Shown: one piece after another, positions 3,288 through 51,158 of the stretch | How the letters are laid out: each line of letters opens with the position of its first letter | Numbering within the stretch: position 1 is the first letter of the stretch | Source: Tubulanus polymorphus | Lineage: Eukaryota > Animalia > Nemertea | Assembly: GCF_964204645.1 (NCBI RefSeq) | Contig: NC_134029.1 | Location: 13,418,850-13,482,849 of the forward strand | Direction of reading: 5' to 3' | DNA length: 64,000 nucleotides | Notes under the pieces: generated by a model | The model's input: the letters and a program-made list of their open reading frames with translations, nothing else | Told to the model about the DNA's origin: nothing | Databases searched by the model: none | Made by a program: the position numbers and the translations under genes

Positions 3288-5486
3288 TATTTTGCTTGGT
3301 GTTCTGGCTGTATTTTTGTCTCACAAGTGGGCGACATGACGGCATGCTTAAAACAAAGACAGTAAACCTCGCCTTACTCAGACATGGCAAACTTATGATT
3401 AATGCGGACTATGAAGAACTATAATCATTTTCCATATTCTAATTCTTAATTCAGACCAATTTGGCTGGTCCCAGTTTATTCTAGTAAGACTAACTGCATC
3501 ACCGATCTGACCAAATATTTTCCAATGTTTGTGCCGTTGAAATGAGAAACGGGCAGTCGTTGCTCCTCAAGCCCCTATGGAGAAATTGAATCCATTAGAA
3601 GACTTGATACAGTCTAAAAGAATGGAAAAATACTAGCATGATTGCAAATCAGTTCGTTTATTAAATGCAAAAAGTATCACAATTAAAACTGACAAACACA
3701 TCAGTTATTTTAATACTTCTGTATGACTGAGACAAATATTTAAATTCAGTTAAAACTTTTGCAGGTCACCAAAAATTAGAACATTATCAGGTTCCCTAAC
3801 TACAAACAATAATACTAATTCTTTAACAAAATTCTTAATGAACAGAAAACCTTAACAGGTCAACACAACTTGGACCACTATCAGGTTTGATAATTACTCT
3901 AATGGATCCAGATTCGCAAAACAAATTACTCTTAAATCAATTTACGATGAACAGAGTTAATTAAGAAATTAAATCGATTTAAGAGTTACTCTTTTTGTGA
4001 AACTGGACTCGGAAGTATGTTACAGAACTTATCAAAGGTGAGTGTGTGATGGCACATTTCCCATCACCTGCCTTTGATAAGTTCCCAGAGTGGGCACTTT
4101 TAAGAGTCAACAACCAGTATGCTGGGTGGGACACGGAATTAAAATTCTGAAATGAAAGGGGCCCAATTCCCGACCACCTTCATGCTGGATGTATCGGCCC
4201 CACTCCGCGCGGTTGCGCCACCGCACGGGATTTACGCGAAGCAGCAGAACACAAACATGGCCACTCTCTCAATTTTCAATGATAGAAATCGTGTGTGCAT
4301 TTCAATTATTTCGGCTGTTAGGGTTTTAAGGCACAATATAAGTTGATGATGTGATATGGCGATGTTAATTAATGATAATTCCGCAGTGAAGCTAGTCACG
4401 AACGGTGCCGATTGAGTGTACAGCTGCCAAAAACACTGAAATGTGCGTAGTTGCGTAACTATTTGCAGTGAATTGCAGACGAAACATGAAGCCTAAACGG
4501 CCGTTTAAAAAAAATTATACCAATTGCAATTGTAAAATAAAAATGAGAAAGAACCTAAGTTAAAATTCTGGCCATTTCTAAAATGTTATTACTAATTTTA
4601 AGTCAGTGCGGAACGTTTAGTTTTCCAACAATAATGAGGGGTGGTAGGTAGTCATGCAATTCAAGTCATCATTTATTACACGTTACTTCCATGTTGTTGA
4701 AAATCTCGCGAGTCCTGGACCAAACCCCAATGAACAATGTGATCTGTGTGCTGGCCACAAATTCACACAAATCACACTACACTACCCATTACACACTCCA
4801 GTACCAACAGCTTTCATATATCCATCCAAATATTTAGTGTCTTTCTTCCTGGATGTTGACTAAAAGAGGTACTTAGGGCCTTACAGGGTTATACATCAAT
4901 GGACTTAATTACAATAGTATTTTGAGGTAACTTAAAATATCACTGATTTTATGAAGGAATTACAAAGTGAGAATAATCCACAATTTCAATGCCTTTAAAA
5001 TTTATCAAGTTGTTTCTCAAATAGATTTATGTTTTTTTTGTTCATTTTCCATCAAATCTCTGTGCTGCTTTTGTAATTCCTTGATAAAAACGCCTCTAAT
5101 CCCCAAACAACCCCCCAATCCCAACTCTCAATTCTCATTAAATCCCCACGCCCAACTCTCAAAACTAATCCAACCTACCTCCAAATGTCGAGAAAGGCAA
5201 TTAAGGTTGGTAGTAACTCTTCGAATCCAGCTGTTGGCCGAACAGTTTTTTTTCTTAGTTTAGTTTAGTTTAGTTTATTGCTCCATATAAAATGAATATA
5301 ATGAGCACAGATAGTACATATGAATAGTGAAAATACAATTACAGTGACAAGATGGTAGCATACAAAATACAGACATTTACCTACGCACACGAACCCGTCC
5401 AGCCATAAATGTTACATATTAATATTGATAAGTGGTTTCACAAAACACCGGTTGGTCTAATCTACGAGCAATTACGTTTAGATAAT

Positions 5487-6020
5487 AGTAATAGGGGTAA
5501 TGGGCTTTCAGGCCAAAGGTCGAAGGGTCGAGCTCATTAAAAAACAAAACATTAAAAGTAATTTAAAACTATAATATATTTTCATAACCGTGTGTATTTT
5601 ATATTATAACTAAATATTTATTCTAAGATATTAATAATTTTAATTTTAAAAGCATATTTAATATGCGCGCGACCAATTGATTTATTTACAATACACAAAT
5701 TCATATAATCAAATATATTTTAATAATAATTATTATTCTATTATTCAACTGAAATACACACGGTTATGAAAATATATTATAGTTTTAAATTACTTTTAAT
5801 ATTTGTTTTTAATGAAATCGACCATTCAACCTTTAACCTGAAAGCCCATTACCTATTACTCTTAAAATAATCATATAAATGATTAACATTTAAATTGACA
5901 GATTATTCAATATAAAAGTATATATTTACAACATTATTTCGATATTCATATTTGTATGAGATTTTTAAACATTAAAAGTGTTAGTAAAGTGTGATTGAAA
6001 TAATACATATATAAATCATT
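5487..6020 (+). repeat. Left TIR of 6.2-kb element (includes palindromic unit 5487-5860)
   Basis: Reverse complement of ~11151-11720. The terminal motif recurs inverted, ending at 5860. Confidence 0.9.
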
Positions 6021-6060
6021 GAACTTCTAAAATCAATTTAAAAAAAAATTTAGTATTAAA

Positions 6061-6837
6061 ATGGAAGCAAATAAGTACTACTTTCCAACATAATAACGTA
6101 ATATCAATATAGATAAATCCCAAAAAGCAAGACACAATAAAACTAAAACACATTTAGAGAATAAATTGAAACTAGAATATAAAGATGATATATTAGAAAC
6201 TAAATTAGATGAATTAAAGAATGAAAAAGAAACATACAAATGTGATACATGTAATCAATCATTCAGTGATAAAAGATATTATAAAGATCATTTAAAATCT
6301 AAAAGTCATATCAGAAATATGAATAATGATATTTTAGGTGAAGATTATTTTGATAAAGATAATGATAAGAAACAGAAGACAATTAAAAGCATAAAAAATA
6401 AATTAAACAATAAAAGACCATACATGGAAGATGTAAGAAAATATATTAATTTATTGGATAATAAAAAAGATATAGAGATAACCGAAGCATTTAAAAGTGA
6501 TATTGGCCCAGCAGCTATCGAGTTTAAATTTCATAAAGGAAAAACATTAGAAGAAAATAAAAAACATTTAGAAAATATGTAAGAAATAATAAAAATAATT
6601 ACTGATGTTGAATATCATAAAATTAGTATATCAGTTAAAGTAAAGTTTATAAAATCTGAAGATAAACCAATATATGATATAAATTCTCATTCCCAACATA
6701 TTATTTCAAAACAACATATAGATGATAAATTAGATAAATGTTATAATGAAGTAAAAACTGAAATAGAAGAGAAATATTTTGAAGGATCTGGTTTAATATT
6801 TGATGAAATAATATTTATGACTTTACATGTTTATAAC
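6061..6837 (+). pseudogene. N-terminal fragment of Polinton pPolB (C2H2 zinc-finger region)
   Basis: Near-identical to the start of pPolB at 55194 down to ~54420 (MEANKYY..., YKCDTCNQSFSDKRYYKDHLKSKSH, MEDVRKYIN...). Has a frameshift, a stop at 6580-6582, and is cut at 6837. Confidence 0.9.
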
Positions 6838-6934
6838 ACCAATAAGGGTAAAAAAATATTTTAAAGCGTAAGGTTTCAGCGAACTCTAACTCTTTTTGAA
6901 TTTTAACCTATTTTAATAAAAATTTGATATATAA

Positions 6935-9207
6935 ATGTGCTCAAGATTAATTAAAGTTCCCGCGAAAGACATGAGTAATAAATATATAAATTCAATATTA
7001 TATTATTTAACTGTTAACAATAATTTAGCAGATATTTCAGGAGTAAATATAAATAAGTATTATAAATTTGAAAATAATGAATTAATTGAAACATCAGATA
7101 TATTTTGCGATAATATAATGCTATATAAAATCATGTTAGAAAAAAAAAATATTAAAGAAAATAGAACAACTTTTCTAAACGTTAATCTGGGAAAGATAAC
7201 CCATTATGAAATTAAAGAATGTTTTAGTCAAGTAAATATTATATTAGATAACTTAGCTATAAAAACTACACGTGTTTTAACAATTCATGATGATAATTCA
7301 AAATCATATATATTAAATAGAATTAATCAAGAATTAAAATTAACAGATTATATTGCTGTATTTAAAATTTCATTATGCAATCAAAATTTAAATGAATTAA
7401 TACAGAAAATGGATAATATTGAAAAATTATTAAATGAAAAAAATTAAAATATATTAGATGTAGATGTGACACAAAATTTTAAAGGATCATTTAATTCAGA
7501 TGAAATAAAATCAATGTTCGAAAATAGAAAATATAAAGTTCTAAAAGAATTTTCCAATAGTTGTGTTTCAGCATTACATAAGGATGATAAAATAAAGATC
7601 TATAATAAAACAGCATGTCAATTCAAATCTCCTGGTGTAAATATAAATTTCGGTTCAAATTTAATGAGTTACATTAATTGCTATCAAGAGAGGTTAAAAG
7701 AATCATTTGAAAAATCAATTGAAACAGGATTGATTAGAATTGAAATAACAAGTATTTCATTTAAAAGAGGATTAAAAGTGATGGAAAAAATAAAACAATA
7801 CTTAAAAAAAGAAAATATTTACTATTCACCTACATATTCACAACTTAAATCATTATTTGATGAGGTTCAACAGACTGTATGTATTTATGATTTGATTGAA
7901 AAATGCTTTTATTTCTGTTATTATGGTGATTTATTAGCAAGGAAATTTACAGGATATAAATCTAGGATAAGTAAAAATATTGAAGAGTCCTCCTTTTTAC
8001 TTATTTTATCAATGTTTACAATTAAGAATATCCCGTGTTTATACCTAACAATTAATCAAAATGATGATAAATCAGAATTCATTATTGATGCAAAAAAATA
8101 TATTAAAACTGAAGGAGCAACTGTTATATCTTCAACTAATTCAATGTTTACAGTATTGAATAAATTTATATTTAGATTTAAATTACGTGAAACAGGAATT
8201 AGTTTTACAACTTTAAAAAAGAGATACAATATAAAACCTAAACCTTTTTATAAATTAGATGCACTTGATATTGAAGAAGATTTTGATTTAAAATTATTAT
8301 CTAAAAGTGAATTTAAAAAGTTAGAAGAAATGAAAGAACTTAAACAATTACAAGAAGATATAGATGAAAACAGAAATAAAATTTGTAATGAATTAAAGCA
8401 ACAATTAGATATTGATAATGAATTATTTGAGACAGAATTTAAAAACTTGAAATAATTCCTGAAGTAAAATTAAATGATTATACTCCTAAAATATCTGGAA
8501 TTGACAATAATACAATTTTTGAAATTAGAGGTTTTTCAACTCAATGTAAACGTATAACAGATCTTTATTTCAGTTATATTTTAACAGATCAAGGCTTTTA
8601 TGAAACTACTACTGATTTAAGAGAATTATTGATAAAAACATTACAATTAGACGTATTAAATAATATTTATTTTGAAATGTCGATAGAAAAAATCATCGAA
8701 AAGTTAAAAATAGGTGTTCATAGCCCTGATAGACACTTTATTTTATCAAAATTAGAAAAAACTATGTTCCAAGTAAAGAAAATAACACACAATCATTTTG
8801 AAATAATTGATAAAATGGATTTTGAATTGATGAAAAAATATACTGAATATTTAAAGATAAATTCTAATGATTTTATAAATGTATGTGATATGCGTAAAGA
8901 ATCTGATTATTTAAGAAAAATGAAACTTAACAATATGAAAATTAAGCAATGCGAGCGTTTAGAACTATTGAAAGATAATTCTGAATATAATATTGATTTC
9001 ATTAATCCTAGATATTTTAGAAATAAATTGCGCCATCTAATTTTAATTCATAATGATGAAAATATAAACATATCAAATGAATTTTTCGATAAAGAAATGA
9101 TCAAGAATAATATAACAGAATATCAGGTGATAAAATTGATTACGCACAAGCAAAAATATAATTCTCAGCGGCATAAAGAATTAGTAATAAGTTTAATTGT
9201 TATTTGA
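6935..9207 (+). pseudogene. ORF X, ~757 aa if repaired; putative Rep_trans-like rolling-circle initiator
   Basis: Pieces 6935-7447, 7466-8455 and 8629-9207 are joined by one nonsense codon (TAA at 7445; TAC in the other copy) and one frameshift near 8440. The downstream frame is open from KLEIIPEV to 9207. Motifs: DVDVTQ(N)F, KIKIYNK, GLIRIE. Confidence 0.6.
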
Positions 9208-9361
9208 ATTGAAACATATAAATATTTAATATTTTATAAACTGTTTAATTTCTTTCTTAAATAAATGAATGGTTTCATCCCAACTGGGAAAAGTGATTTG
9301 AAGCATTATCTTGTAGCAGGAGGATTAATATTGGCCGCGCTTCATTTATACTATGAGAATA

Positions 9362-10873
9362 TTAGTAATATATAGTCTCAAATAATTCATTATCAATATC
9401 TAATTGTTGCTTTAATTCATTACAAATTTTATTTCTATTTTCATCTATATCTTCTTGTAATTGTTTAAGCTCTTTCATTTCTTCTAACTTTTTAAATTCA
9501 CTTTTAGATAATAATTTCAAATCAAAATCTTCTTCAATATCAAGTGCATCTAATTTATAAAAAGGTTTAGATTTTATATTGTATCTCTTTTTTAAAGTTG
9601 TAAAACTAATTCCTGTTTCACGTAATTCAAATCTAAATATAAATTTATTCAATACTGTAAACATTGAATTAGTTGAAGATATAACAGTTGCTCCTTCAGT
9701 TTTAATATATTTTTTTGCTTCAATAATGAATTCTGATTTATCATCATTTTGATTAATTGTTATGTATAAACACGGGATATTCTTAATTGTAAACATTGAT
9801 AAAATAAGTAAAAAGGAGGACTCTTCAATATTTTTACTTATCCTAGATTTATATCCTGTAAATTTCCTTGCTAATAAATCACCATAATAACAGAAATAAA
9901 AGCATTTTTCAATCAAATCATAAATACATACAGTCTGTTGAACCTCATCAAATAATGATTTAAGTTGTGAATATGTAGGTGAATAGTAAATATTTTCTTT
10001 TTTTAAGTATTGTTTTATTTTTTCCATCACTTTTAATCCTCTTTTAAATGAAATACTTGTTACTTCAATTCTAATCAATCCTGTTTCAATTGATTTTTCA
10101 AATGATTTTTTTAACCTCTCTTGATAGCAATTAATGTAACTCATTAAATTTAAACCGAAATCTATATTTACACCAGGAGATTTGAATTGACATGCTGTTT
10201 TATTATAGATCTTTATTTTATCATCCTTATGTAATGCTGAAACACAACTATTGGAAAATTCTTTTAGAACTTTATATTTTCTATTTTCGAACATTGATTT
10301 TATTTCATCTGAATTAAATGATCCTTTAAAATCTTGTGTCACATCTACATCTAATATATTGTAATTTTTTTCATTTAATAATTTTTCAATATTATCCATT
10401 TTCTGTATTAATTCATTTAAATTTTGATTGCATAATGAAATTTTAAATACAGCAATATAATCTGTTAATTTTAATTCTTGATTAATTCTACTTAATATAT
10501 ATGATTTTGAATTATTATCATGAATTGTTAAAACACGTGTAATTTTTATAACTAAGTTATCTAATATAATATTTCCTTGATTAAAACATTCTTTAATTTC
10601 ATAATGGGTTATCTTTCTCTGATTAACGTTTAGAAAAGTTGTTCTATTTTCTTTAATAATTTCTTTTTCTAACATGATTTTATATAGCATTATATTATCG
10701 CAAAATATATCTGATGTTTCAATTAATTCATTATTTTCAGATTTATAATACTTATTTATATTTACTCCTGAAATATCTGCTAAATTATTGTTAACAGTTA
10801 AATAATAAAATATTGAATTTATATATTTATTACTCATGTCTTTCGCGGGAACTTTAATTAATCTTGAGCACAT
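9362..10873 (-). CDS. ORF X second copy, uninterrupted 503 aa but 3'-truncated; putative Rep_trans-like nickase
   Basis: Open frame with ILDVDVTQDF, KIKIYNK (Tyr codon 10205-10207) and GLIRIEV. Diverges from the + copy after ...NELFET. Confidence 0.6.
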   Translation of the reverse strand: MCSRLIKVPAKDMSNKYINSIFYYLTVNNNLADISGVNINKYYKSENNELIETSDIFCDNIMLYKIMLEKEIIKENRTTFLNVNQRKITHYEIKECFNQGNIILDNLVIKITRVLTIHDNNSKSYILSRINQELKLTDYIAVFKISLCNQNLNELIQKMDNIEKLLNEKNYNILDVDVTQDFKGSFNSDEIKSMFENRKYKVLKEFSNSCVSALHKDDKIKIYNKTACQFKSPGVNIDFGLNLMSYINCYQERLKKSFEKSIETGLIRIEVTSISFKRGLKVMEKIKQYLKKENIYYSPTYSQLKSLFDEVQQTVCIYDLIEKCFYFCYYGDLLARKFTGYKSRISKNIEESSFLLILSMFTIKNIPCLYITINQNDDKSEFIIEAKKYIKTEGATVISSTNSMFTVLNKFIFRFELRETGISFTTLKKRYNIKSKPFYKLDALDIEEDFDLKLLSKSEFKKLEEMKELKQLQEDIDENRNKICNELKQQLDIDNELFETIYY

Positions 10874-11150
10874 TTATATATCAAATTTTTATTAAAATAG
10901 GTTAAAATTCAAAAAGAGTTAGAGTTCGCTGAAACCTTACGCTTTAAAATATTTTTTTACCCTTATTGGTTATTAAAATTGATATTTTCATCAACTCGTT
11001 AATTACTCGTTACTTTTAAACATAAAATAAGGATTTAACGCATATAAATATAAATATTCACTGTTTTAAATATGAATTATTTCACTCGTTAATTACTCGT
11101 TACTTTTTATATTAAAAATAAGAATTTAACGCATATAAATATAAATATTT

Positions 11151-11720
11151 AATGATTTATATATGAATTATTTCAATCACACTTTACTAACACTTTTAAT
11201 GTTAAAAAATCTAACTCATACAAATATAAATATTGAAATAATGTTGTAAATATATACTTTTATATTGAATAATCTGTCAATTTAAATGTCATTCATTTAT
11301 ATGATTATTTTAAGAGTAATAGGGGTAATGGGCTTTCAGGTTAAAGGTTGAATGGTCGAGTTCATTAAAAACAAATATTAAAAGTAATTTAAAACTATAA
11401 TATATTTTCATAACCGTGTGTATTTCAGTTGAATAATAGAATAATAATTATTATTAAAATATATTTGATTATATGAATTTGTGTATTGTAAATAAATCAA
11501 TTGGTCGCGGAGCGGAGCGGTCGCGGAGCGGTCGCGGAGCGGAGCGACCAATTGATTTAATACAATATGCTTTTAAAATTAAAATTATTAATATCTTAGA
11601 ATAAATATTTAGTTATAATATAAAATACACACGGTTATGAAAATATATTATAGTTTTAAATTACTTTTAATGTTTCGTTTTTTAATGAGCTCGACCTGAA
11701 AGCCCATTACCCCTATTACT
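11151..11720 (-). repeat. Right TIR of 6.2-kb element (palindromic unit 11315-11720)
   Basis: Inverse of 5487-6020. Inner AGTAATAGGGG at 11315; GC-rich (GGAGC)n centre at ~11500-11555. Confidence 0.9.
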
Positions 11721-11726
11721 GATAAT

Positions 11727-26958: not shown

Positions 26959-26973
26959 AATATAATAATAATG

Positions 26974-27050
<77 letters not shown>

Positions 27051-37361: not shown

Positions 37362-37950
37362 AGTAATAGGGGTAATGGGCTTTCAGATCAAAGGTCGAAC
37401 GGTCGAGCTCATTAAAAAACAAAACATTAAAAGTAATTTAAAACTATAATATATTTTCATAACCGTGTGTATTTTATATTATAACTAAATATTTATTCTA
37501 AGATATCAATAATTTAAAAAGCATATTGTATTAATTCAATTGGTCGCTCCACTTCGCTACCGCTCCGCTCCGCGACCAATTGATTTATTTACAATACACA
37601 AATTCATATAATCAAATATATTCAAATAATAATAATATTCAACTGAAATGCACACGGTTATGAAAATATATTATAGTTTTAAATTACTTTTAATATATGT
37701 TTTTAATGAACTCGACCATTCAACCTTTGATATGAAAGCCCATTACCCCTATTACTCTTAAAATAATCATATAAATGAATAACATTTAAATCATTGAACT
37801 TCTAAAATCAATTTTAATAAAAAATTTAGTATTAAAATGGAAGCAAATAAGTACTACTGACCAACATGTAATATCAATATAGATAAATCCCAAAAAGCAA
37901 GACACAATAAAACTAAAACACATTTAGAGAATAAATTGAAACTAGAATAT
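37362..37950 (+). repeat. Left TIR (palindromic unit 37362-37756 plus copy of the pPolB start)
   Basis: Reverse complement of 55081-55684. Confidence 0.93.
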
Positions 37951-38886
37951 TTACAGTTATATTCAGAACAGTTAACAAAGGCAAAGAAATTTATTGAATT
38001 ATGGAATAATGATCCAAATAATGAACAACAATACGTTGAGTAATTTGATATCAAGGATCCGATGTTTATACTAGAACATGATTCTATTTGAACCTATATA
38101 CATTCTATTTAAAGAGCTATGGAATAAATCTATAAATTCACAGCTGTTACAGCCGTTACTATGACGCCGAGACATTATGACTCATAATATTACAAACGTG
38201 TAGAGAAAATTCTAGAAAGGTGTGCTGGAACTCTGAATAGAGATGACATGTCATAATCAGAAACGTGTAGAATATTCTATAAAAGGCGCGCCGGAACCAG
38301 ATGACGTGGCATAATCAACGGCGTGTTCATTCTAGAAATCGCCCCGGAAATGAACAGACGCTGTAACATTGTGCTCAGGATATTCTATCTATCGAAACGA
38401 AATTAGGAGTTTATAGTTTACAATTATAAATCTAAATGTAAGTACTGTTTTTTGTAGTTATTGGGGCTATTAAATATGAAACCTTTAGATATATTTAAGT
38501 GTATTTAGTATATCTTTTAGATGGCTAGAGTTGCCGCTAATATCTTTTAGATTAATAAAACGCCATACGCATCAAGAAGTGATAGAGAAACTCAAGATAC
38601 TCTTTCTGACTGAGGAATCAACAGCAATGGAGATATCGACGAACCAATAAGAATTAGCACAAGAAACACAAGAATCGCCAAAAGATCGACGAAGAAACTA
38701 TATAAGAATTTCAAAAACATTAAGACTCCAATGATTAAGTTTAACATTTGTTGATGTAGTTAAATATATACCAGCAATTGAAAAAATGCTTGTAATTATA
38801 AATTGTATTTATAGAAATCAAATGATGTATTGGAAGAAATGACTGAACAACTTGTATAATGTATTGTGTAAATCTGTTTGGTGAAT

Positions 38887-39235
38887 TTTTATGTTCGGTC
38901 GTTTCTATTTCTAGAATGAATATATAATTAGGATTAACGCATGCGCATTAAGCAAAAGCGCGCACGAATGCGCGGTTTGCTCAGTGGTATGATTCAGATA
39001 TTTTATGTCGGTTGTTTCTATTTACATAATGAATATATAATTATGATTAACGCATGCGCATTAAGCAAAAGCGCGCATGAATGCGCGGTTTGCCCAATGC
39101 GAACACGTTTTGATATTTTCTGTGTTCGGTTGTTTCTATTTTACAGAATTTATAGAATGAATATATAATTATGATTAACGCATGCGCATTAAGCAAAACC
39201 GCGCACGAATGCGCGGTTTGCTCAGTGGTATTATT
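38887..39235 (+). repeat. Three ~115-120-bp tandem repeats inside the Polinton
   Basis: aatgaatatataattatgattaacgcatgcgcattaagcaaaagcgcgcacgaatgcgcggtttgc occurs three times. Confidence 0.9.
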
Positions 39236-39359
39236 TAGATATAAAGGAATCGAAACAACTTATCAAAAGCAGCGAGGAATGAAAAAGGATGACGTTGGTC
39301 GAAGAAATGGAAGAGGATTCTAAAATATTAACCAATTTAGTAAAAAATACATATAATAA

Positions 39360-40034
39360 ATGGAACCAGAACAACCACAAACTATCAATATTACAAATAA
39401 CACTGGCGTTATAAACATATACTACAAGAAGTGTTCTAAATGTGAATTAGATAAATCATTAACAGAATTTAGTAAGCGTAAGATTAGCAAAGATGGTTTT
39501 CAATATTGCTGTAAAACTTGTACTAAACTATATACCAAACAATACCGAGAAGATAATGTAGAACATTATAATTATTATATGGCAGAATATATGAGAGAAA
39601 GATATCAAACAGATCTTAATTTTAGATTGAAACAATGCTTAAGATCTAGATTAACACAATTATTCAACAAAGAAACACATTCAGAAACACTATCTAATTT
39701 ATTGGGTTGTTCAGATGAATTTCTCAAATCATGGATTATATTTCAATTCGATGATAAAATGAACATAGATAATTATGGGGATTATTACCATATTTATCAT
39801 ACGTTACCGATTTCTAAATTTAACATGAATGATGAATACAATAAAAAACTTATTTGGAATTGGAAGAATTTAAGACCTTTAGAAAAGAAGGAGAACATAA
39901 TTAAATCTAATAAACTAGATTTACAGTTATATTTAGAACAGTTAACAAAGGCAAAGAAATTTATTGATCAATGGAACAATGATCCAAATAATGAACAATA
40001 CGTTGAGGAATTTGATATCAAGGATCCGAAATGA
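39360..40034 (+). CDS. Zn-ribbon plus HNH-like endonuclease of the type common in large DNA viruses
   Basis: KKCSKC...FSKRKISKDG..YCCKTC; LLGCS..FLK.WI..QFDDKMNIDNYG.YYHIYHTLPISKF...WKNLRPLEKKENIIK. The usual HIDH reads HIYH here. Confidence 0.7.
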   Translation: MEPEQPQTINITNNTGVINIYYKKCSKCELDKSLTEFSKRKISKDGFQYCCKTCTKLYTKQYREDNVEHYNYYMAEYMRERYQTDLNFRLKQCLRSRLTQLFNKETHSETLSNLLGCSDEFLKSWIIFQFDDKMNIDNYGDYYHIYHTLPISKFNMNDEYNKKLIWNWKNLRPLEKKENIIKSNKLDLQLYLEQLTKAKKFIDQWNNDPNNEQYVEEFDIKDPK

Positions 40035-40312
40035 CTTATCTGGACAGTTATAATTACTGCTCCTAATAGATAAACAAAAGTAGTGAGATATCAAATAGAT
40101 TTTAAATAAAAAGTATTTAAAAAACAATAACTTCAACTAGCTTGTGAATTCTATTATATTTTTAATATTTTCTTTTCAAAAAAGAATACTTTATATCACA
40201 AATAAAAAATACTAAAAAAACAATAACTAATACTAGAAAACTTTAGCTTTAACTAGCTAGTATCATTTTATAATACTTATAATATTTTTCTTATTAAATT
40301 TCTCTAATATCA

Positions 40313-40915
40313 ATGTCAAAGAAATCTAATAAGAATAGTATTGATATTGAAAAGACATTAGATGATTTGGGTATAAGTGATAATAAAGATACAGTTGTTT
40401 CTAATTCTATTCAAGTTAATAACAATATTGATTATGAATACTACTTATATTGTAAGCATCATCTAGAACTATTGATTGCCGGTGGAAAAACTAAAGGGTT
40501 TTTAACTAAGACTATTACTTTTCAAGAATTAGATGTTATGAAACCAGATAAAGTAATAAAATATTTTAAGATTTATGAAGAAGCAAGATTATCCCGAATA
40601 AATGATTCTATTTCAGATGGTATTGTCAAATGTTATTCTAAGTTATGTAACCAGTTAATACCAATTAATGATGAAAATAAATTATATAGTGATTTGAAAG
40701 ATGACTACTTAGTTATGACTGAATTACAAAAATGGGTTGGTTACGCTTCATTCCAATTAGGATCGTTTATGACATTAATTTCTACTGGCGGCATAACATT
40801 TTCGAATATCAAGCCTATGGAATATAAATCAGGTAAGAACGAAACAGATGAACTACAAACAAACGGTGAAACAGAAAATGAATCAGAACAAAAATTAACT
40901 AAAATAAATGAGTGA
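40313..40915 (+). CDS. Uncharacterised Polinton protein (200 aa)
   Basis: Intact ORF in a tightly packed + cluster, with a hydrophobic segment near the C-terminus. Confidence 0.7.
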   Translation: MSKKSNKNSIDIEKTLDDLGISDNKDTVVSNSIQVNNNIDYEYYLYCKHHLELLIAGGKTKGFLTKTITFQELDVMKPDKVIKYFKIYEEARLSRINDSISDGIVKCYSKLCNQLIPINDENKLYSDLKDDYLVMTELQKWVGYASFQLGSFMTLISTGGITFSNIKPMEYKSGKNETDELQTNGETENESEQKLTKINE

Positions 40916-41271
40916 TAGCGTTAAGAAAAAGGCTAGATCCGAGAAACAAATTAAATTGGCAAGAGAATTAGGTAAAAGATCTTCAGAATTAAAAAAAGCT
41001 AAGAAAAATAAATTAACTGATATAAATGAATCACAGACTTTATCTGATATTAATTCAAATAATAATCTAATTCTTCTAATGCTGGAAGTAATTATAAATT
41101 ATATATTACAATTGGATTAGTAACAGTTATTATATTATCCGGTGTAATATATAAATCAAAATTCAAATCTGATGATAAATATGATTCCAATGACAATAAA
41201 CCTATCATACCAGAAAATAAGTCAAATCATAAAGCCATTGAAACTAAATCTAAATTATTATTAATGGATTA
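40908..41271 (+). pseudogene. Small basic protein with probable TM segment, likely frameshifted
   Basis: MSDSVKKKARSEKQIKLARELGK...; another frame continues as YILQL-like/IGLVTVIILSGVIYK to a stop at ~41271. Confidence 0.45.
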
Positions 41272-41278
41272 AAATAAA

Positions 41279-42382
41279 ATGAAAAAAGAACAATATTTAA
41301 GAGATTTATATTATAACCCAGAAAGTGAAGTATCATATTCTAACGTTTCAGAATTATGGAATAAAATTAAATCTGATAAGAAAAATGGTGATATAAAATA
41401 TAGTGAATTGAAATCATGGTTACAAAATCAACCAACATATCAAATCCACAAGAAAATGGATAAAACTTATTTAACAAGAAAAGTTATGGTTTCATATATC
41501 GATCAACAATGGCAAGCAGATTTAATTGACATGAAGAACTTAGAAGAATACAACAGAGGATATTTCTGGATACTGAATGTTATAGATATATTCAGTAGAT
41601 AGGCATGGTCAATTCCAATCAAAAATAAAACTGGTATAGAAGTAACAAATGCTTTTAAATCTATATTTAAAGAAGCTATTCCAGATAAGATACAATTTGA
41701 TGAAGGTAAAGAATTTTATAACAAACATTTTAAAAAACTATTATCTGATAACGATGTAGATTATTTTTCAACACACTCAGATAAAAAAGCATCTATTATA
41801 GAAAGATTTAATAAAACATTGAAAACTAGAATGTGGAAATACTTTACTGCTAATGAAACATATAAATATATCGATGAGTCTATAAATATATTAGATGATT
41901 TAGTGAAAGGTTATAATAATTCTAAACATAGTTCTATAAATATGAAACCTATACAAGCTAGAAAAGAAGATAATTCGGAAATAGTTTGGAATAATTTATA
42001 TGGAGCATTTGTTACACATGATTTCGGAGAACCTAAATTTAAAAATGTACAACACGTAAGAATATCTAAATATAGAAAAACATTTTATAAAGGTTATACT
42101 CCAAATTTTACTGAAGAAATATTTAAGATTAAAAAGATAATATTAACTAAACCATTTGTTTATAAACTAGAAGATTTAAAAGATGAAGAAATATTAGGTT
42201 ATTTCTATGAACAAGAATTATCACTTGTACCAAATCCAGATGAAATAGAATACAAAATAGAAAAAGTATTGAAAACAAAAACTCTTAAAGGAAAAAAGTA
42301 TTCTTTGGTGAAATATAAAGGATATGATGATAAATTTAATGAATGGATTTTATCTAGTAAAATTAAAAGAATAAATGAATAA
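41279..42382 (+). pseudogene. Retroviral-like (rve) integrase with C-terminal chromodomain; one nonsense codon
   Basis: DDE motifs QWQADLIDM, IQFDEGKEF and IERFNKTLK; chromodomain YKIEKVLK...SLVKYKGYDDKFNEWI. Both track ORFs are in the same frame, separated only by TAG at 41600-41602 (IDIFSR*AW, expected Y). Confidence 0.93.
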
Positions 42383-42986
42383 AGATTTATTTATATTTGA
42401 ACCTCATAATATGTTAGTTACTGGAGTAACAAACTGTGGTAAAACACATTTCATATTAGATTTGTTAGAAACTATTTATAAGAATCATTTTGATAATATA
42501 ATATTATTCTGCCCTACTTATGAAATGAATAAAACATATGATAGAGATATAGTTAAGATGAAAAAGTTTATTATATTAGATCCTAAAACAGTAAAAGAAA
42601 ATTTAGATAATTGTATAAAAATAGCAATTGATGCTTATAAAGGATCAAATACATTATTCATTGTAGATGATTGCGCAAATTTACATGATTCAAAAGTTAG
42701 AGAAAGTGAGTTATGTTATCTAGCTTTCTCTGGAAGACATTTTGGGATAACAACATGGGTTTTAAATCAAAAATATAATTCAATTGTTAAAGACTTTAGG
42801 GAGAATATAAGATTTCTATTTTTATTCTACAACAAAGATAAAAAATCTATGCAACAATCATTGGAAGAAAATCAAATTATACCTACTGAATTATATGATG
42901 AATATATGAATAAATTAAAGAATAATAAAGGTTCAAAATTATTACTGAGACTACAATTTCCATATGAATATAAATTTATAAAATAA
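42375..42986 (+). CDS. A32/FtsK-like genome packaging ATPase
   Basis: Walker A GVTNCGKT, Walker B LFIVDD, and SGRHFGITTWVLNQ. Confidence 0.92.
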   Translation: MNKDLFIFEPHNMLVTGVTNCGKTHFILDLLETIYKNHFDNIILFCPTYEMNKTYDRDIVKMKKFIILDPKTVKENLDNCIKIAIDAYKGSNTLFIVDDCANLHDSKVRESELCYLAFSGRHFGITTWVLNQKYNSIVKDFRENIRFLFLFYNKDKKSMQQSLEENQIIPTELYDEYMNKLKNNKGSKLLLRLQFPYEYKFIK

Positions 42987-43331
42987 ATATTTGTATACCT
43001 ATGTATTACATACCCTAATACCTGATACCCTATTAGATACCTTAAATACTTAAAACCCCCTTTTTTAAAATAAATATTATTTATACAATTTTCAACCAAT
43101 TTATTTTCATTTTTTCAACAAATATATGAATAAGTTTGAAAATAATTAAGGTTATTTATTATTACTGAGGTTTCAATTTCCATATGAGTATCAGTTTATA
43201 GAATAAGATATTTTTATGTATTAGATTGTATTAGATTGTATTAAATATGTATTAAATACCTTAAATACCTTAAATACTTAAAACCCCCTTTTTTATTTAC
43301 TATTATTTTATACAATTTTCAACCTTTATTA

Positions 43332-44126
43332 TTATTTGATTGTTAGATAATTACTTTCTGAATCACTTTCACTATCAGACCCTAACAATTTTCTCAAATT
43401 CTCTACCGAATTTTCTTCTTCAAATTCTCTATTATTTTTATACTTATTTTTCACCTTTTTTACCGAATCATCAATAGTTGTTTCATTGTTATGCTTATTC
43501 ATCCAATCAAATTTATCATTATTTTCTACTTTATGTTTCATAGAATCTTTATTAGTGTTTGCTCCTAATATTTCATTTACAGTGTTTGATCCTAATATTT
43601 CATTAGCATCAGTTAAATCTAATTCATCTTTATTAGGTGTTGCTAATAAAAAATCTTCATATAATTCTTTACCATTTACTTTTTTATTTGAAACAAATTT
43701 TTTAACATATCTAAATGGGTGTTCTATAAATTCTCTTAAACCAACACGTTCTATAACATTAGTAATATGTACCTTTGTATTCATATGTTTATTCCAATTT
43801 GATGGAGCGTTTGAAAATTCACCTTTACAATAATCACAATAATTTCTATTTTCACTAACATTTAATATTATTTCATCATTAGATGTAGAAGGTATTACTG
43901 TAGTAGGTATTACTGTAGTAGGTATTACATTATTATCAATTACATTACTTAAATTATCAACAACACCACTTTTATTATTATCGATTTCTATTAGTTGAGT
44001 TTTATAAATTTTGAAAATAGGATCAAATATCAAAGCTATATTACAAGGTATTACATAATATAAACCATCATTATTTTCATGTGTATCGATGTATGGAATA
44101 TGTTTATATACTTTACCTCCTTCCAT
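43332..44126 (-). CDS. Uncharacterised protein with a C2H2/U1-like zinc finger
   Basis: YCDYCKGEFSNAPSNWNKHMNTKVH; VIPTT repeats; acidic tail. Confidence 0.65.
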   Translation of the reverse strand: MEGGKVYKHIPYIDTHENNDGLYYVIPCNIALIFDPIFKIYKTQLIEIDNNKSGVVDNLSNVIDNNVIPTTVIPTTVIPSTSNDEIILNVSENRNYCDYCKGEFSNAPSNWNKHMNTKVHITNVIERVGLREFIEHPFRYVKKFVSNKKVNGKELYEDFLLATPNKDELDLTDANEILGSNTVNEILGANTNKDSMKHKVENNDKFDWMNKHNNETTIDDSVKKVKNKYKNNREFEEENSVENLRKLLGSDSESDSESNYLTIK

Positions 44127-44158
44127 TTATTATATATATATTTATTAAAGTTAAAATT

Positions 44159-45403
44159 TTAATACATAACACTATCTAATTGTGAATTCACAATATTTAA
44201 TTGCGCGTCAGATATAATATAAATGTGCATTTTGAAATTTTTGATTCCTTTATTCTTTGTCATGAATAATTGTATTCCATCTTTAGTGTTCTGTAGTTTT
44301 TTCCCAGAACGATGTAATGAATTATCCTCTGCTGTTCTAAAATCTAACCATAATGCGTATTTATTACCGGTATAATAATCAATTTGATTAATATTACAAT
44401 TTTCAGATGATTTCACTTTTTCATTCATAAAATGTTTTCTAATTTCTGGCCACTGATCAATCATTCTCATTCCTTGACAAAATATTTTATTTGCTATTCC
44501 TTCGATAAATATTTCTATTTTTGTTATTTCATGATTATAATAATTATCAACATTTATTGCGCCATTAGTATATGTTGCAATTGTAAAAAATATTAATATA
44601 CCTTTAATAGATCTTCTTGGGAAGTTAATATTGTCATTAATTATTTCATCATTTGCATTAATGGTAACAGTTTTAAATTTATCAATATAATCATATAATA
44701 ATGAAAATCCTTGATTGTATTGAGTTTGAATTATACTTGAAATATTTTCATCAGTTACTGTATCATATTCTAAACATATATTCGATAATTTATAACTCAT
44801 ATCTTTATTAACGCTAGATAATACAATTTCATTTACAGGAGCAAATGTTATTTCGAATATAACGTCTTCTTGAATTGCATATTTATATAAAGGCGCATTG
44901 TTATTTATCAATTCAAAGTCTAATGGAATTTTATATTTGCTTCCATATATACTTTTTATCAATTTATCTACAGCATTAGTTAATATTGCGCTATTAGCTT
45001 CTGATCTTAATTTATTTTGGTTTTCCGATTGAATGCCCTGAAATATATTATTTCTATTTTCTTTAGTTACCCATAAATCTTTATAATGCATGAATAAATT
45101 ATAATCATCTAATGAGAAAACTGTTTCTGGACCAATCTTTATAGTTAATTTTTTAATCAAATATCTTCCAACATTATCAACAACATAATTATTATTATTA
45201 CCGATTACTTTTATATCGGCTGATAAATAAATACTATTTGGAACGTAAAAAGTATTTTGTGTTAATCTAGGAATTCTAACGTATAAAGTTTCATCGGGAT
45301 TAATATTTGAAGGATTATGAGTAATTATATGATGTGATCTTTCTGCTTTAATAGCATTAGATATTCTAGAAATCTTAGAAGGACTTATATAACTCCCACC
45401 CAT
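44159..45403 (-). CDS. Putative double jelly-roll major capsid protein (414 aa)
   Basis: Size, beta-rich pattern (LIKKLTIKIG, YKIPLDFEL, YKLSNICLEYDTV, YALWLDFR) and genomic context; fold is inferred. Confidence 0.78.
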   Translation of the reverse strand: MGGSYISPSKISRISNAIKAERSHHIITHNPSNINPDETLYVRIPRLTQNTFYVPNSIYLSADIKVIGNNNNYVVDNVGRYLIKKLTIKIGPETVFSLDDYNLFMHYKDLWVTKENRNNIFQGIQSENQNKLRSEANSAILTNAVDKLIKSIYGSKYKIPLDFELINNNAPLYKYAIQEDVIFEITFAPVNEIVLSSVNKDMSYKLSNICLEYDTVTDENISSIIQTQYNQGFSLLYDYIDKFKTVTINANDEIINDNINFPRRSIKGILIFFTIATYTNGAINVDNYYNHEITKIEIFIEGIANKIFCQGMRMIDQWPEIRKHFMNEKVKSSENCNINQIDYYTGNKYALWLDFRTAEDNSLHRSGKKLQNTKDGIQLFMTKNKGIKNFKMHIYIISDAQLNIVNSQLDSVMY

Positions 45404-45445
45404 TTATTTAACAAAAAAAAATTAATTATTTATTTTTTATCATGG

Positions 45446-47134
45446 TTACTTGATATTTTTTGATATCATATTTACTAACCCAAAAATAATAGCACTTACA
45501 ACTGTAATTAAAAATAAAATAATATGTTCAGCAGCAAAGTTAATAATGTTTCCTGCAGATTTCAATATAAAACCAACAATTGATGCAATAATTCCTGGTA
45601 AAGCTGCAGCAGATTTTTTAGATAGTTCCCATAAATATTTTGCTAATTTCTTTAAACCATCCTTAATTTTATCTTGTATAGAATTATTATCATTCGGGGG
45701 TTTATCCGGTTTATTGGGAGTAGGAGTAGATTTCAAAGAATTTGATATTGCTAAACCAATTGTTGTAAATAACATAGTTACAGCTGTTAGAATTGAAAGA
45801 ATTGTTATTCCTTCTAATTTAAATAATAATTTTATTCTATCTTTCAATGATATTTTAGAATCTGATTTTATCAACAAATCTTTAAAAATAACTTTTAATT
45901 TTTTAATATGATTAAGATCATATGATTTTAATAATGTATCTCTTTCTTTTTCCTGTAATTGTTTGTTATATTTTAAATCATCTATTTCTTTTTCTAAAGC
46001 TAACTTTCTGCTTTCATAATCAGCTTCCTCGATTAATTGAAGATCTCTATTTAATTCTAATTGTTTTAATTCTTCATTTGCATTAGTTAATTCTTTTTCT
46101 AACATGGTTATTTTAGAAAATCTCATCTTAATATTAGCAATTTCACCAGCTGATTCTTGCATACCTTTAATTTCTCTACGTGCTTGTTCAGGAAATGCTT
46201 CTAATTCATCATCAGTTAAATCAAGTAATCCTTTTTCTAGTAAAGATTGTATTCCATTTATTCCAGTACTATTCATCTCTTCTTCTGAATCTCTTAATCT
46301 ATCAATTTGTTTTTCTAATACTAATTGTAATTGACTTGAATCATCATCAATTTGTTGAATATCTCTTCTCGATGTTTCGGGTGTTGAAGATCTTAATTTA
46401 TCTGATCGATCTCTATTCTCTTCCATTTCTGGATCAAAATCAGTAGGATTTGGATTTGGATTTTTAAATGGTGAATATTTGTTATAATCAATTTTAGGAA
46501 TTGGTTTTTCTTTATTTATTCTATCGATTGCATTCCATATAATTCTGAGAAATTCTCTACCGCCTTTTGAACCTTCAATTGTAGATCTTGATCGCATTCC
46601 AGGTTCAAAAATATTTTCTTGACCCATTCTAGATAATTGAATTGATACATTTTTGTTATTTAATTCAACATTATAATACCATGCATCATTTTAAAAGTCT
46701 AAATTATTCATGAAAAATGGGTCATCTTTTAAAATTTGTTCTACAACACCTTCGGAACCAATTTCATCTATTTCATCTTTTGGTAATAATACGTTAACAA
46801 TTGTATATATTACTCTATTTTTCATTAATTTTATTTGATATTTCATAAGAGGATCAGTTGTATTTACTAATCTTTCCATTAAATCCTTTCTAGATGTTGC
46901 GGTTCTAATAACTAACCTTTCGGTAGCTGTCATATATTCTTTAAATTCTTTACGCGTTTCATAATCATAATCATCACCATCATCATCATAATCGGGTATA
47001 TTTAAATTATTATTATATCCTGGCTCATTACCATCATTAAAACTTGTTTCACTAAAATCAGGTTGTTGTTCATCACTTATGCCGGGTTCATCTAAAGGAT
47101 CCAATGGAATATCTTCTCCACCTTCTACATCCAT
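45446..47134 (-). pseudogene. Acidic/coiled-coil protein with C-terminal hydrophobic helices (563 codons; one in-frame TAA)
   Basis: Track ORFs 46691-47134 and 45446-46627 are in the same frame, with only TAA at 46691-46693 between them (LDF*NDAWYYNVEL...SRMGQE). Confidence 0.72.
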
Positions 47135-47150
47135 TTATATAATAAAAAAA

Positions 47151-48473
47151 TTAAAATTTAAAATATAATATTCCTCCGATTACAATTCCTATACAGGTTA
47201 AAGCTAATTTAGTATTTTCATGGGATTTATTATCATCATTAGTTTTAATTATATCATGTTGAATATTATCAGTTTTAATATTTTCTGATGTATTGTAATC
47301 TTTTATTTTGGAGTCATTATCCAATTTAATATTCTTAGTTTTAGTTTCTGTTGATTGAATGTGTTTTTTATTTTTTTCACCTTCCATTAATTTTGGAGCA
47401 ATAATCTTTTTATTTATATCATTTAATCCAAATGAATTATTTATTGTTGCAGTTTTAATTAGATTATTATAACCAATTATGTTTCCCATCTTTAATACTA
47501 AATCATTAGAAATAATTAATAGATTAGGGCCTATACAATAATTTAATCTAATATGTGATTTATTTAAATAATTTTGATATCTTACAATGTTTTCTGGAAT
47601 CGATCTATTTTTATCATTATGAATTGAATCTTCAAATAATACTTTAAATTGTTTCTGCGCATCGAATGAAGTGTTATCATTTCCAACTTTTGGGGATCTT
47701 GTTTCAACTTGCGCACCTAAAATACATATCAAATAAGTTCTAATTGATTGATTTATTCTTTGTATTCCGGCTTTAGTAAAATCTTCACTATTTTCTAAAA
47801 TGAAATTAACCCAACCATTATTGTTTTGTTGTTGTATATTATTATAATATTTTGGTAATTCATTCCAATTTAGTGTTCTTATATCTGAATTTGTCATTAT
47901 TTTTCCAAATTCTTTAGTATATAATATTCCTAATCCGCCCATTGTTCCAATTTTTGCTCTAAAATCTTTATTTGAATTAATATTAAATTCATTACATATT
48001 TTATAAAACTTAGAAAAATTAATATTATTATTCAATTCTTTAAAATATTTTGAACCTGGTAAAGGACATTCTAATTCATCTAATATTAATTTTATTTGAA
48101 AATATGTATGAAATCTAAAAAGTGATAACATCAATGGTAAACTTGGTTTGTTTAAATGATCATTACAACTTATTCCACATCCTGTTGTTGCACAATAAAC
48201 AGCAAAATTTAATTGGTTCTGCCAATACTTCATATTAGATTTTAATAACCATTGTTTTGCCTCATTTAAATTTTTGAAATTAATTGTATACACATGAAAT
48301 ATATTTTCCATCTTTACATGAAAATTATTACTTTCAGTAACATAAATATATAAATCAATTAATGAATTTAAAACTTCATTTCTATATGTAATATCTTTAT
48401 TAAAATCTATTGCTGGAATATTATATTTAATTGATTTATTATATTGGAAAGCTTTTGGAAAACTATCTGCCAT
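47151..48473 (-). CDS. Uncharacterised 440-aa Polinton protein with C-terminal TM anchor
   Basis: Intact ORF; WQNQLNFAVYCATTGCG motif; ends LALTCIGIVIGGILYFKF; conserved in the 33415-34121 copy. Confidence 0.78.
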   Translation of the reverse strand: MADSFPKAFQYNKSIKYNIPAIDFNKDITYRNEVLNSLIDLYIYVTESNNFHVKMENIFHVYTINFKNLNEAKQWLLKSNMKYWQNQLNFAVYCATTGCGISCNDHLNKPSLPLMLSLFRFHTYFQIKLILDELECPLPGSKYFKELNNNINFSKFYKICNEFNINSNKDFRAKIGTMGGLGILYTKEFGKIMTNSDIRTLNWNELPKYYNNIQQQNNNGWVNFILENSEDFTKAGIQRINQSIRTYLICILGAQVETRSPKVGNDNTSFDAQKQFKVLFEDSIHNDKNRSIPENIVRYQNYLNKSHIRLNYCIGPNLLIISNDLVLKMGNIIGYNNLIKTATINNSFGLNDINKKIIAPKLMEGEKNKKHIQSTETKTKNIKLDNDSKIKDYNTSENIKTDNIQHDIIKTNDDNKSHENTKLALTCIGIVIGGILYFKF

Positions 48474-48601
48474 TTATATAATTAAAAAATTAATAATTAA
48501 CTAATTCTTTTAATAATTTATCTTGTTCTTCAACTGTTATATGGCCATTTAAACTTATGATATAATCTAGTGTGTTCTTTAACTCTTTCCATGCGACTTC
48601 T

Positions 48602-48955
48602 CTAAAAACCAGATCCTGAGATTTTATTAATTTCTTTTATATTAGTTTTAATTTTTTCTTTATTACTTTTTATATTTGATTTTGAACTTATACCAGTGAA
48701 AACACTTGAACTTAATCCTAATACACCAATTGATATAGCTAAAGGTGTTAATGGTGAAAATATTGCTAGAAATGTTATTACAGAACTAATTGTAACCGAA
48801 CCACTTATAATCAAATAATATATAATTTTACTTTTTAAATATTTTTTCTTTTTTATCTTTAAGTCACTTTCAAATTCTAATATTTGTTTTTCTAAATATG
48901 TTTTTAATTTAGTTTTATTTATATCATGAGGAATAATATCAATATTATCATCCAT
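48602..48955 (-). CDS. Small two-TM membrane protein (3' end possibly disrupted)
   Basis: Hydrophobic hairpin IIYYLIISGSVTISSVITFLAIF / LAISIGVLGLSSSVFTGI. Confidence 0.65.
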   Translation of the reverse strand: MDDNIDIIPHDINKTKLKTYLEKQILEFESDLKIKKKKYLKSKIIYYLIISGSVTISSVITFLAIFSPLTPLAISIGVLGLSSSVFTGISSKSNIKSNKEKIKTNIKEINKISGSGF

Positions 48956-48976
48956 TTATTTAGCAAAAAAAAATTA

Positions 48977-49389
48977 CTAATTAGTAAACTTATAAGCAAC
49001 AAATATAACAATAACAGTTCCACCTAAAATCCATATTATTTCATATTTCTTCTGTTCATTACTTGGGGTATAATAATCTGATAATTTGGGTTTGTATAGA
49101 TGTAATTTTTCTTTATTGGTTACCGCGTTATATAAACTCATTGCATCATCAATTGATTGAAAATCTCTATGTGAAATCTTCTCATCATATAATTCCTTGT
49201 TAATATAATCCATATAGTTTTGCCTCTTTTCTCTCTTGCTTTATTGTATTTCTCTAATGCTAAGTTATGTCTTTTTTGTTCTGTTAATGAACCATTTTTA
49301 TCAATATGTTTAAATAAATATCCACCACCAGTAAATGCTAAAGCGTTAACAATTGCTGATCCTATAATAGTTATAACTGCAGAAGCCAT
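48977..49389 (-). pseudogene. Small membrane protein split by a frameshift
   Basis: MASAVITIIGSAIVNALAFTGGG...EQKRHNLALEK switches frame near 49220 into MDYINKEL...WILGGTVIVIFVAYKF. Confidence 0.65.
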
Positions 49390-49413
49390 TTATTTAGTAA
49401 AATAATTACGCAT

Positions 49414-49635
49414 TTATATGGGAGGAATATATTTTTGTTTTTCTAAATAATCAATAGTTAAATTAGATAAAGTAACTGCTAATGTTAATTTTAAGATATC
49501 ATTTATATCAAATCTATCAACATTAACACTTCCCATTTTAAATACTTTTTTTAATACCATTAAATAACCAACAGTTCCAACTGATAGTAATGCTCCATTA
49601 TATAATCCAGTTATTATCCACTTATTATCACTCAT
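49414..49635 (-). CDS. Small hydrophobic protein (73 aa)
   Basis: Intact ORF with TAAATG start; conserved in the fragment at ~34892-34950. Confidence 0.65.
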   Translation of the reverse strand: MSDNKWIITGLYNGALLSVGTVGYLMVLKKVFKMGSVNVDRFDINDILKLTLAVTLSNLTIDYLEKQKYIPPI

Positions 49636-49979
49636 TTATTTATCAAAAAAATTACAAATTCATCAAAATATTTAGTTATCTTAGTGATGATTAATTCAAC
49701 ATTTATTTCATTACTACTTTGATGATTATCATATATTTTGGATAATATGTTTTTGATATCTTCAATAATTCCATCTTCATTTAATTCATAATATTCTAAA
49801 GGCGTTTTAATTAAATCAATTACTTTTTCTATATTATAATTTTCTTTATCAATCATTGATGCATTGTTAAATGATTTACTTTTTATATCAGTAATTACAT
49901 CATTTAGTTTAATTCTCATTTCTTTACCATGTTTAAAATCAAACCCAAAACATATACTCGGTCCAACAGTTATATTCAT
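49632..49979 (-). CDS. Uncharacterised 115-aa protein
   Basis: Intact ORF; homologue at 34954-35258. Confidence 0.65.
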   Translation of the reverse strand: MNITVGPSICFGFDFKHGKEMRIKLNDVITDIKSKSFNNASMIDKENYNIEKVIDLIKTPLEYYELNEDGIIEDIKNILSKIYDNHQSSNEINVELIITKITKYFDEFVIFLINK

Positions 49980-49996
49980 TTATATAGTGAAAAGAA

Positions 49997-50758: not shown

Positions 50759-50775
50759 TTATTTTACATATTTTC

Positions 50776-51129
50776 TCATTCGAAATCTATTTCATGGTGC
50801 CCTTTTTCATTCTTACCTTTGTATACGAAATAGAAATCTCCAGAACATAATTCTTCTAAATCTTCACTTGATAATCTATGAAATCTATCTGGTAAATATG
50901 TTCTGAATTTATATGTATTTCCTTTTAATCCTTCATATTCTAAGTGTATAACTAATTTATCTCCATAGTTATTAGTAACTGTATCAACATCTGTAATTAG
51001 ATGTTTCTTATGGATTGTTAATTCTGTTAACTTTTTGAATTTATAATCTACAGATTTTACATTTGTTATATCTTTAATTCTATCTAGAAATAATTTGTTG
51101 TTCTCACTGTTTGCTTGTTTACTCTCCAT
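50776..51129 (-). CDS. Small putative OB-fold/ssDNA-binding protein next to pPolB
   Basis: FKKLTEL...VTNNYGDKLVIHLE...TYLPDRF...FVYKG beta-rich pattern; function is inferred. Confidence 0.5.
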   Translation of the reverse strand: MESKQANSENNKLFLDRIKDITNVKSVDYKFKKLTELTIHKKHLITDVDTVTNNYGDKLVIHLEYEGLKGNTYKFRTYLPDRFHRLSSEDLEELCSGDFYFVYKGKNEKGHHEIDFE

Positions 51130-51158
51130 TTTAATAACATATTTTTATTAAAATTTGA

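Follow-up and report, generated by a model that had tools for sequence, protein, structure and literature searches.

Element A, a Polinton-ended element of the nemertean Tubulanus polymorphus, carries two copies of a gene referred to here as open reading frame X (ORF X), whose product is predicted to be a Rep_trans-like tyrosine nickase. The element lies in a 64,000-nucleotide stretch of contig NC_134029.1, the whole of which is called the window. The chances appear about even that the nickase serves a small cassette of the rolling-circle type, which joins by a fixed 5' edge inside Polinton ends and is likely a parasite of Polintons. A eukaryotic sister family of Rep_trans on a Polinton-end cassette is probably real and undescribed. 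A broader proposal falls somewhat short of an even chance: ORF X would represent an as yet undescribed but widespread class of mobile elements in eukaryotes that use a TBP-fold (Rep_trans-type) tyrosine nickase as transposase or initiator. This would be the first eukaryotic non-HUH rolling-circle system, acting here as a hyperparasite that targets Polinton ends.

Evidence for the enzymatic assignment comes from conservation within the protein family. Among 1.84 billion representatives searched, 129 were relatives of ORF X at E <=0.001. In an alignment of the query with 88 longer matches, including close ones but omitting short fragments (~20-25% identity), Y223, K225 and G265 were invariant (89/89 each) and four acidic residues nearly so: D59 (77/77), D177 (85/86), D181 (85/86), and E270 (84/88). 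T179 (80/86), K221 (86/89), N224 (86/89), and R268 (87/89) were also conserved, and D59, D177, Y223, and E270 were jointly kept in 72 of the 76 rows that cover all four. An earlier note on this DNA, which proposed a Rep_trans-like initiator, had named invariance of D-x3-D, Y-N-K, and R-x-E as a check; in this alignment they are near-invariant. The residues D59, D177, D181, Y223, K225, R268, and E270 occur in the same order as D46, D142, D146, Y191, K193, R212, and E214 of RepD. The corresponding set in RepC of pT181 is D46, R140, D142, D146, R189, Y191, K193, R212, and E214. According to PMC4797284, Y191 is the nucleophile, and D46, D142, and E214 are the metal ligands.

The Rep_trans motifs are listed as N' and I-IV in the accessible part of PMC5714925. 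ORF X has N' (F-x-D, as in RepC), the acids of motif I, the Y-x-K of motif III, and the R-x-E of motif IV, and it lacks the Arg of motif I, motif II, and the Glu of motif III. The position of R140 (R-x-D of motif I) is occupied by Asp in 62 of 86 rows and next by Ser, Glu, or Cys. Instead of the motif II pattern T/S-x-Y/E-x-G, a conserved V-G-x-x-C-L lies ahead of the Tyr strand. The Asp-to-Tyr spacing is 46 in ORF X and 49 in Rep_trans, as similar as had been claimed, whereas the Tyr-to-Glu spacing is 47 compared with 23 in RepC. DVDVTQDF, KIKIYNK, and LIRIEV are present in ORF X in the reported order. A chance motif match was rejected: of 5000 shuffles, 12 matched a loose pattern and none a strict one, composed after both proteins had been viewed.

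Further evidence comes from structure prediction. ORF X is predicted to form the TBP-like curved antiparallel sheet of the Rep_trans fold. All seven key residues lie on beta strands (model pLDDT 93-94), and the Tyr of the Y-x-K motif (Y223 and K225) is in strand 218-224. RepDE was the first Foldseek match in the PDB for both models (E 1.5e-3 and 5.2e-4). Inovirus G2P ranked third in the viral library (E 1.2e-4), and Rep_trans-labelled clusters scored 0.92-0.93 in the Atlas. By the end points of the alignment with 4cwe (model 12-253, chain 39-236), D59 and E270 fall no more than one residue from D46 and E214. No usable Atlas match came from the C-terminal 254 residues. HUH proteins were absent from the fold-search matches listed, which excludes nothing, and an HUH motif is not conserved in the family: there is no conserved His pair (only H242, 59/89), and the Tyr is on a strand.

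Is ORF X, then, a member of Rep_trans itself? The modeled fold, the family-wide conservation, and a fourth catalytic residue, which the note had not seen, support the Rep_trans-like assignment of the note, but membership in PF02486 itself did not hold. None of 70 family members matched the PF02486 profile at E 0.05, and none of 70 matched PF25227. Judged by these profiles, the ORF X family is a sister family of Rep_trans and not PF02486 itself, and it is predicted to work like Rep_trans. A comparison with RepC by hhalign gave 0.8%, but the RepC alignment was too shallow (Neff 1.3) for this value to be informative. Neither ORF X nor its relatives had meaningful matches in sequence searches of Pfam, PHROGs, NCBIfam, and the PDB.

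The relatives that could be traced are eukaryotic. Four of 30 looked-up clusters were tied to a named organism, namely three Planococcus citri proteins (84-Mb chromosome) and one protein of the chytrid Blyttiomyces helicus, and none of the 30 was named to a prokaryote. Phage (50,697) and plasmid (72,556) records contained no ORF X match at E 1. A metagenome scan (22 of 64 parts) yielded one ORF X-like fragment. A prokaryote-genome scan yielded one bin with a 1.4-kb contig and a second contig of 1.5 kb carrying relatives, which are probably contamination. In a quick unrooted tree of 85 of the 89 rows, ORF X stood beside four metagenomic proteins with a support of 100, separate from the Planococcus proteins.

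The setting of ORF X is that of a Polinton derivative. Element A spans 5487-11720 and contains or adjoins the following features:

5481..5486, forward strand: left copy of the target-site duplication, GATAAT
5487..5860, no strand: left terminal hairpin of element A, Polinton-type, with a GC-rich tip shorter than in the other three ends
5861..6837, forward strand: Polinton-derived segment, subterminal DNA and a 5' piece of the polymerase gene
6838..6934, forward strand: cassette leader, 97 bp, whose first bases are the fixed edge that meets several different Polinton flanks
6935..9207, forward strand: ORF X, plus copy, ~755 codons, with a stop at 7445-7447 and a frameshift near 8440
9228..9368, forward strand: higher-copy segment with a small hydrophobic ORF (TAAATG start at 9265), ending at the fold-back point
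9375..10970, reverse strand: inverted duplicate of 6838-8433, 1596 bp, 98% identical
10873..9362, reverse strand: ORF X, minus copy, 503 codons open, C-terminus lost at the fold-back point
10994..11253, no strand: subterminal tandem repeats, unit ~90 bp
11315..11720, no strand: right terminal hairpin of element A, with GGAGC repeats at its tip
11721..11726, forward strand: right copy of the target-site duplication, GATAAT

As had been noted, ORF X sits between Polinton-family terminal inverted repeats with a 6-bp target-site duplication: AGTAATAGGGG opens both ends of element A, and GATAAT lies directly outside both. Each end of element A and of a sibling in the window, Polinton B, forms an imperfect hairpin of 374-410 nt. 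Element A has no integrase, ATPase, or capsid gene, and its polymerase is reduced to a 5' piece with a C2H2 zinc finger within 6097-6582. In other words, it is a non-autonomous Polinton derivative. The stretch 6009-6842 is 95% identical to 55247-54420 of Polinton B, its polymerase end, and at 6838 the sequence changes abruptly from Polinton DNA to the leader and ORF X. A TATATA spacer (9369-9374) connects the inverted duplicate to the preceding DNA, and the fold-back point is at 9368-9375. The segment 9228-9368 is not present in Polinton B. Its small hydrophobic ORF had a read depth of ~7x that of ORF X, was preceded by other upstream sequence in 22 reads, and continued beyond 9368 in 53 reads; it is probably part of another Polinton-related family.

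The ~755 codons of ORF X, close to the ~757 residues first estimated, form one gene, because five longer homologues match the 8443-9204 piece at their C-terminal ends (E 4e-32 to 9e-15). The minus copy retains the entire predicted catalytic domain, including D59, D177, D181, Y223, K225, R268, and E270. The two copies differ by 3 synonymous and 22 non-synonymous codons among 499, so neither looks selected at this locus. The Asp-to-Asn change reported for the plus copy is real. However, it affects residue 181, the counterpart of RepD D146, whereas the metal ligand D142 corresponds to D177, and loss of a metal ligand was therefore rejected. Both copies start in the context TATATAAATG, which agrees with the gene context claimed for Polintons: 11 of 21 ATG-started ORFs of at least 80 aa in Polinton B begin with TAAATG. 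The GC content of ORF X (0.21, and 0.13 at third codon positions, GC3) is also that of Polinton genes, compared with 0.42 and 0.40 in a host gene. In the sequence L003 (234-450), a distant homologue of ORF X has a 66-bp tandem array ~180 bp before its start, comparable to the 90-bp array upstream of the minus copy.

Further evidence for a cassette came from sequencing reads. Run X5, of which ~12% of the reads were used, derives from another sample with the same species label, and its depths are read as a ratio only, lacking a single-copy baseline. Mean depth was ~790 over the polymerase piece (five bins, 6257-6851) and ~31 over ORF X (19 bins, 6971-9231), which makes polymerase DNA ~25-fold commoner. 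Consistent with its reported absence from the full-length sibling, ORF X gave no match in Polinton B by tblastn or by the family profile over six frames, and its status as a core Polinton gene was rejected on this absence and the 1/25 depth. At 6839, 413 reads depart from the window sequence, as ordinary Polintons would. Apart from the two junctions in the window itself, a junction of 6267 with 6838 was present in 4 reads from 2 starts (X5) and in 2 contigs (X1, another study), and a junction of 6838 with a site 24 letters beyond 6180 in 4 reads. At the other copy of the edge, 26 reads with mixed flanks depart at 10970 (agreement 0.59) and 18 at 10971 (0.77). At least four different flanks meet one fixed cassette edge (6838/10970). 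The junction and departure reads were taken from the best-supported rows, and two of the four placed flanks are visible only because they lie inside the mapped stretch.

The four placeable flanks are 1351, 781, 613, and 750 bp in from a Polinton end, and ORF X points inward. At the three sites with known interrupted Polinton DNA, the sequence expected past the join is ACAAA at 54424-54420 and 37975-37979 of Polinton B and ATAAA at the third site, that is, A(C/T)AAA at 3/3 sites; ACAAA occurs at 83 of 36,646 positions in Polinton B. On the 3' side, contigs continue from ORF X into the small ORF, and the true 3' end of the cassette lies past what element A keeps; a second end was not found in the reads and contigs. 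The fold-back of element A is not the common form, because 18 reads at 9375 continue as normal ORF X. There is no significant hairpin at the cassette edge (the nick site and 3' end were not placed) and none behind the stop codon.

These observations bear on two other accounts of ORF X. The first, unlikely but the stronger of the two, is that ORF X serves a stable Polinton lineage or satellite as its replication gene, nicking the terminal hairpins for rolling-hairpin replication in place of the protein-primed polymerase. It draws on the ~400-nt hairpins with GGAGC tip repeats at both ends, on a minus copy that lies 750 bp inside the end with no polymerase DNA between, and on the Polinton-like composition, start context, and flanks (4/4 placeable). 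However, Polinton B is bounded by the same hairpins and has no ORF X, polymerase DNA is far commoner than ORF X, and a stable lineage predicts one 5' flank rather than the several that occur at a single edge. The earlier idea of an animal Polinton lineage or satellite with a nickase thus survives in its Polinton-type ends, duplication, and composition, but a stable, hairpin-nicking lineage does not account for several flanks at one edge. Action on the hairpin termini is unsupported, because hairpins are equally present in Polinton B and the recombination-like point is the cassette edge.

The second account, slightly less probable again, is that ORF X encodes the transposase of a host transposon family, free-living and with a single gene, that came to lie in Polintons here by chance or by local capture. 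Most clusters with a recorded length (24/29) are on contigs <9 kb, 13 full-length members of one cluster are on contigs of 2.9-4.5 kb, and a fragment in L001 has host-like genes around it and no evident Polinton-like ORF nearby. Six viral-contig scans contained no relative, and the association with Polintons that the note had expected for homologues from other species was not shown; the flanks of 44 edge reads were not placed. Against this, short contigs are the norm in that collection, the composition and TAAATG start of ORF X track the Polinton and not the host, and all four placeable flanks are Polinton subterminal DNA. To our knowledge, TBP has no catalytic residue set of the ORF X kind. 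Least probable is that ORF X is another TBP-fold DNA-binding protein or a plain nuclease without strand transfer, its motif likeness being convergent: TBP, viral TBP-like, and early-transcription-factor proteins score equally with Rep proteins, the structure scores are middling, and profile-level homology with Rep_trans is missing, but an invariant Tyr-x-Lys and three near-invariant acids lie on strands in the RepD order, and Rep-Arvir is likewise tied to Rep_trans only by fold and these residues (available text of PMC13107129).

How would a cassette with a Rep_trans-like nickase move? By analogy with Rep_trans chemistry, the D59-D177-E270 triad would hold a metal ion, and Y223 would cut a single strand, either at the cassette edge or close to it, and stay covalently attached. 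Strand transfer would then link the edge to an A(C/T)AAA sequence that lies 0.6-1.4 kb in from the end of a Polinton. Unwinding and synthesis would be provided in trans, by the Polinton or the host, because no helicase domain was found in ORF X. The cassette likely travels as a Polinton parasite, because its fixed 5' edge joins DNA just inside Polinton ends, and a long residence of ORF X in Polintons fits its Polinton-like GC, GC3, and gene start. Element A would have arisen from a Polinton end joined to the cassette, folding back at 9368-9375 into a near-palindrome. The 6-bp duplication suggests that the integrase of a helper Polinton would have inserted it, after which both ORF X copies drifted. 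Element A is likely a dead-end product.

Polinton B, the reference for these comparisons, is 18.3 kb long, with terminal repeats of 600 bp, AGTAATAGGGG ends, and AGTATG duplicated at both flanks. Its broken polymerase carries a C2H2 finger at the N-terminus and an insert resembling endonuclease VII. Its features are:

37362..55684, no strand: Polinton B, same ends as element A; integrase, A32 ATPase, capsid, and polymerase remnants, without ORF X
41273-42382: chromodomain integrase pieces
42375-42986: A32 ATPase
45403-44159: capsid

The four hairpins of the two elements (5487-5860, 11315-11720, 37362-37756, and 55275-55684) have GC-rich GGAGC tip repeats within DNA that is 78% AT. Hairpin Polinton ends and TAAATG gene starts are reminiscent of the telomeres and late promoters of poxviruses. 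A second, decayed Polinton remnant (31703-35258) is 85-92% identical to 45486-49945 of Polinton B, and its terminal motif is missing. Elsewhere in the window are a minisatellite array with a 12-bp unit laid out as a large palindrome (26935-27600); a 1.6-kb direct repeat (86%) at 20467-26949 around a probable DNA transposon, marked by 470-bp inverted repeats (22261-22732, 24865-25327); a host gene of the KCTD8/12/16 type with BTB and H1 domains (17521-18369), which points to an animal host; a reverse-transcriptase fragment (587-1396); and a tandem array with a 31-bp unit (58943-59767).

The ORF X family places in an animal virus-like element a predicted DNA-nicking enzyme whose kind earlier reports confine to bacteria and archaea. 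In the part of PMC13107129 available, Rep_trans is described as seemingly restricted to bacteria and then, in 2026, extended to archaea. The 129 eukaryotic clusters with the same catalytic set would give Rep_trans a third branch and, if the assignment is true, complete the Rep_trans-type superfamily across all three domains. The family is probably a new class of transposable element, invisible to current protein-family libraries, and a candidate site-specific nicking and joining enzyme predicted to work in animal cells. It also offers a testable example of how a replication-type gene enters the ends of Polintons, which has been put forward as a reason for the mosaic genomes of these viruses. 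Invasion of element ends by replication genes was proposed earlier for the mobile replication modules of polisuviruses; in the accessible portions of these sources, the modules comprise pPolB, PolA, AEP, SF3 helicase, and a circovirus-like (HUH) Rep, none of them a TBP-fold nickase (10.64898/2026.10.13.758929; PMC11296320). Rolling-circle genes named for Polinton-like viruses and Replitrons are of the HUH type only, as far as the available text goes (10.64898/2026.10.13.758929; 10.64898/2026.06.19.733378; PMC11296320; 10.1101/2022.12.15.520654). The full-text literature, as far as accessible, holds no description of an ORF X-like family; supplements, subscription papers, and Repbase were outside its scope, and preprint orthogroup tables may hold the family unnamed.

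Among known systems, element A resembles Polintons/Mavericks and their non-autonomous derivatives in its terminal repeats, 6-bp duplication, and gene-start context, and differs from the former in having no integrase, capsid, or complete polymerase. The protein is closest to Rep_trans (PF02486; pT181 RepC, RepD/RepDE 4CWC, RepSTK1 4CIJ; MOBT relaxases), with which it shares a predicted TBP-like sheet, a strand Tyr in Y-N-K, a D/D/E triad, and counterparts of D146 and R212. In contrast to Rep_trans, it has an Asp in place of R140, no T/SxY/ExG motif II, and 24 extra residues between Tyr and Glu, and no significant stem-loop was detected at the cassette edge, its likely site of action. Members of the ORF X family are 700-1000 aa long, with two further regions, no Pfam match, and eukaryotic hosts. 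Rep-Arvir/DUF7845 of archaeal viruses and plasmids is, in the available text of PMC13107129, similarly a sister family joined to Rep_trans by fold, Tyr, and three acids, with comparably marginal Foldseek scores; it differs by a winged-helix domain and by KHYYM at the Tyr, where ORF X retains YNK. In its proposed way of moving, the ORF X cassette resembles the HUH transposons (Replitrons, Helitrons, and IS91), with which it would share a single nickase gene, a sharp end, and orientation-specific joining at a short target (10.1101/2022.12.15.520654). Unlike them, the cassette has a non-homologous enzyme with its Tyr on a strand and an apparent preference for Polinton ends.
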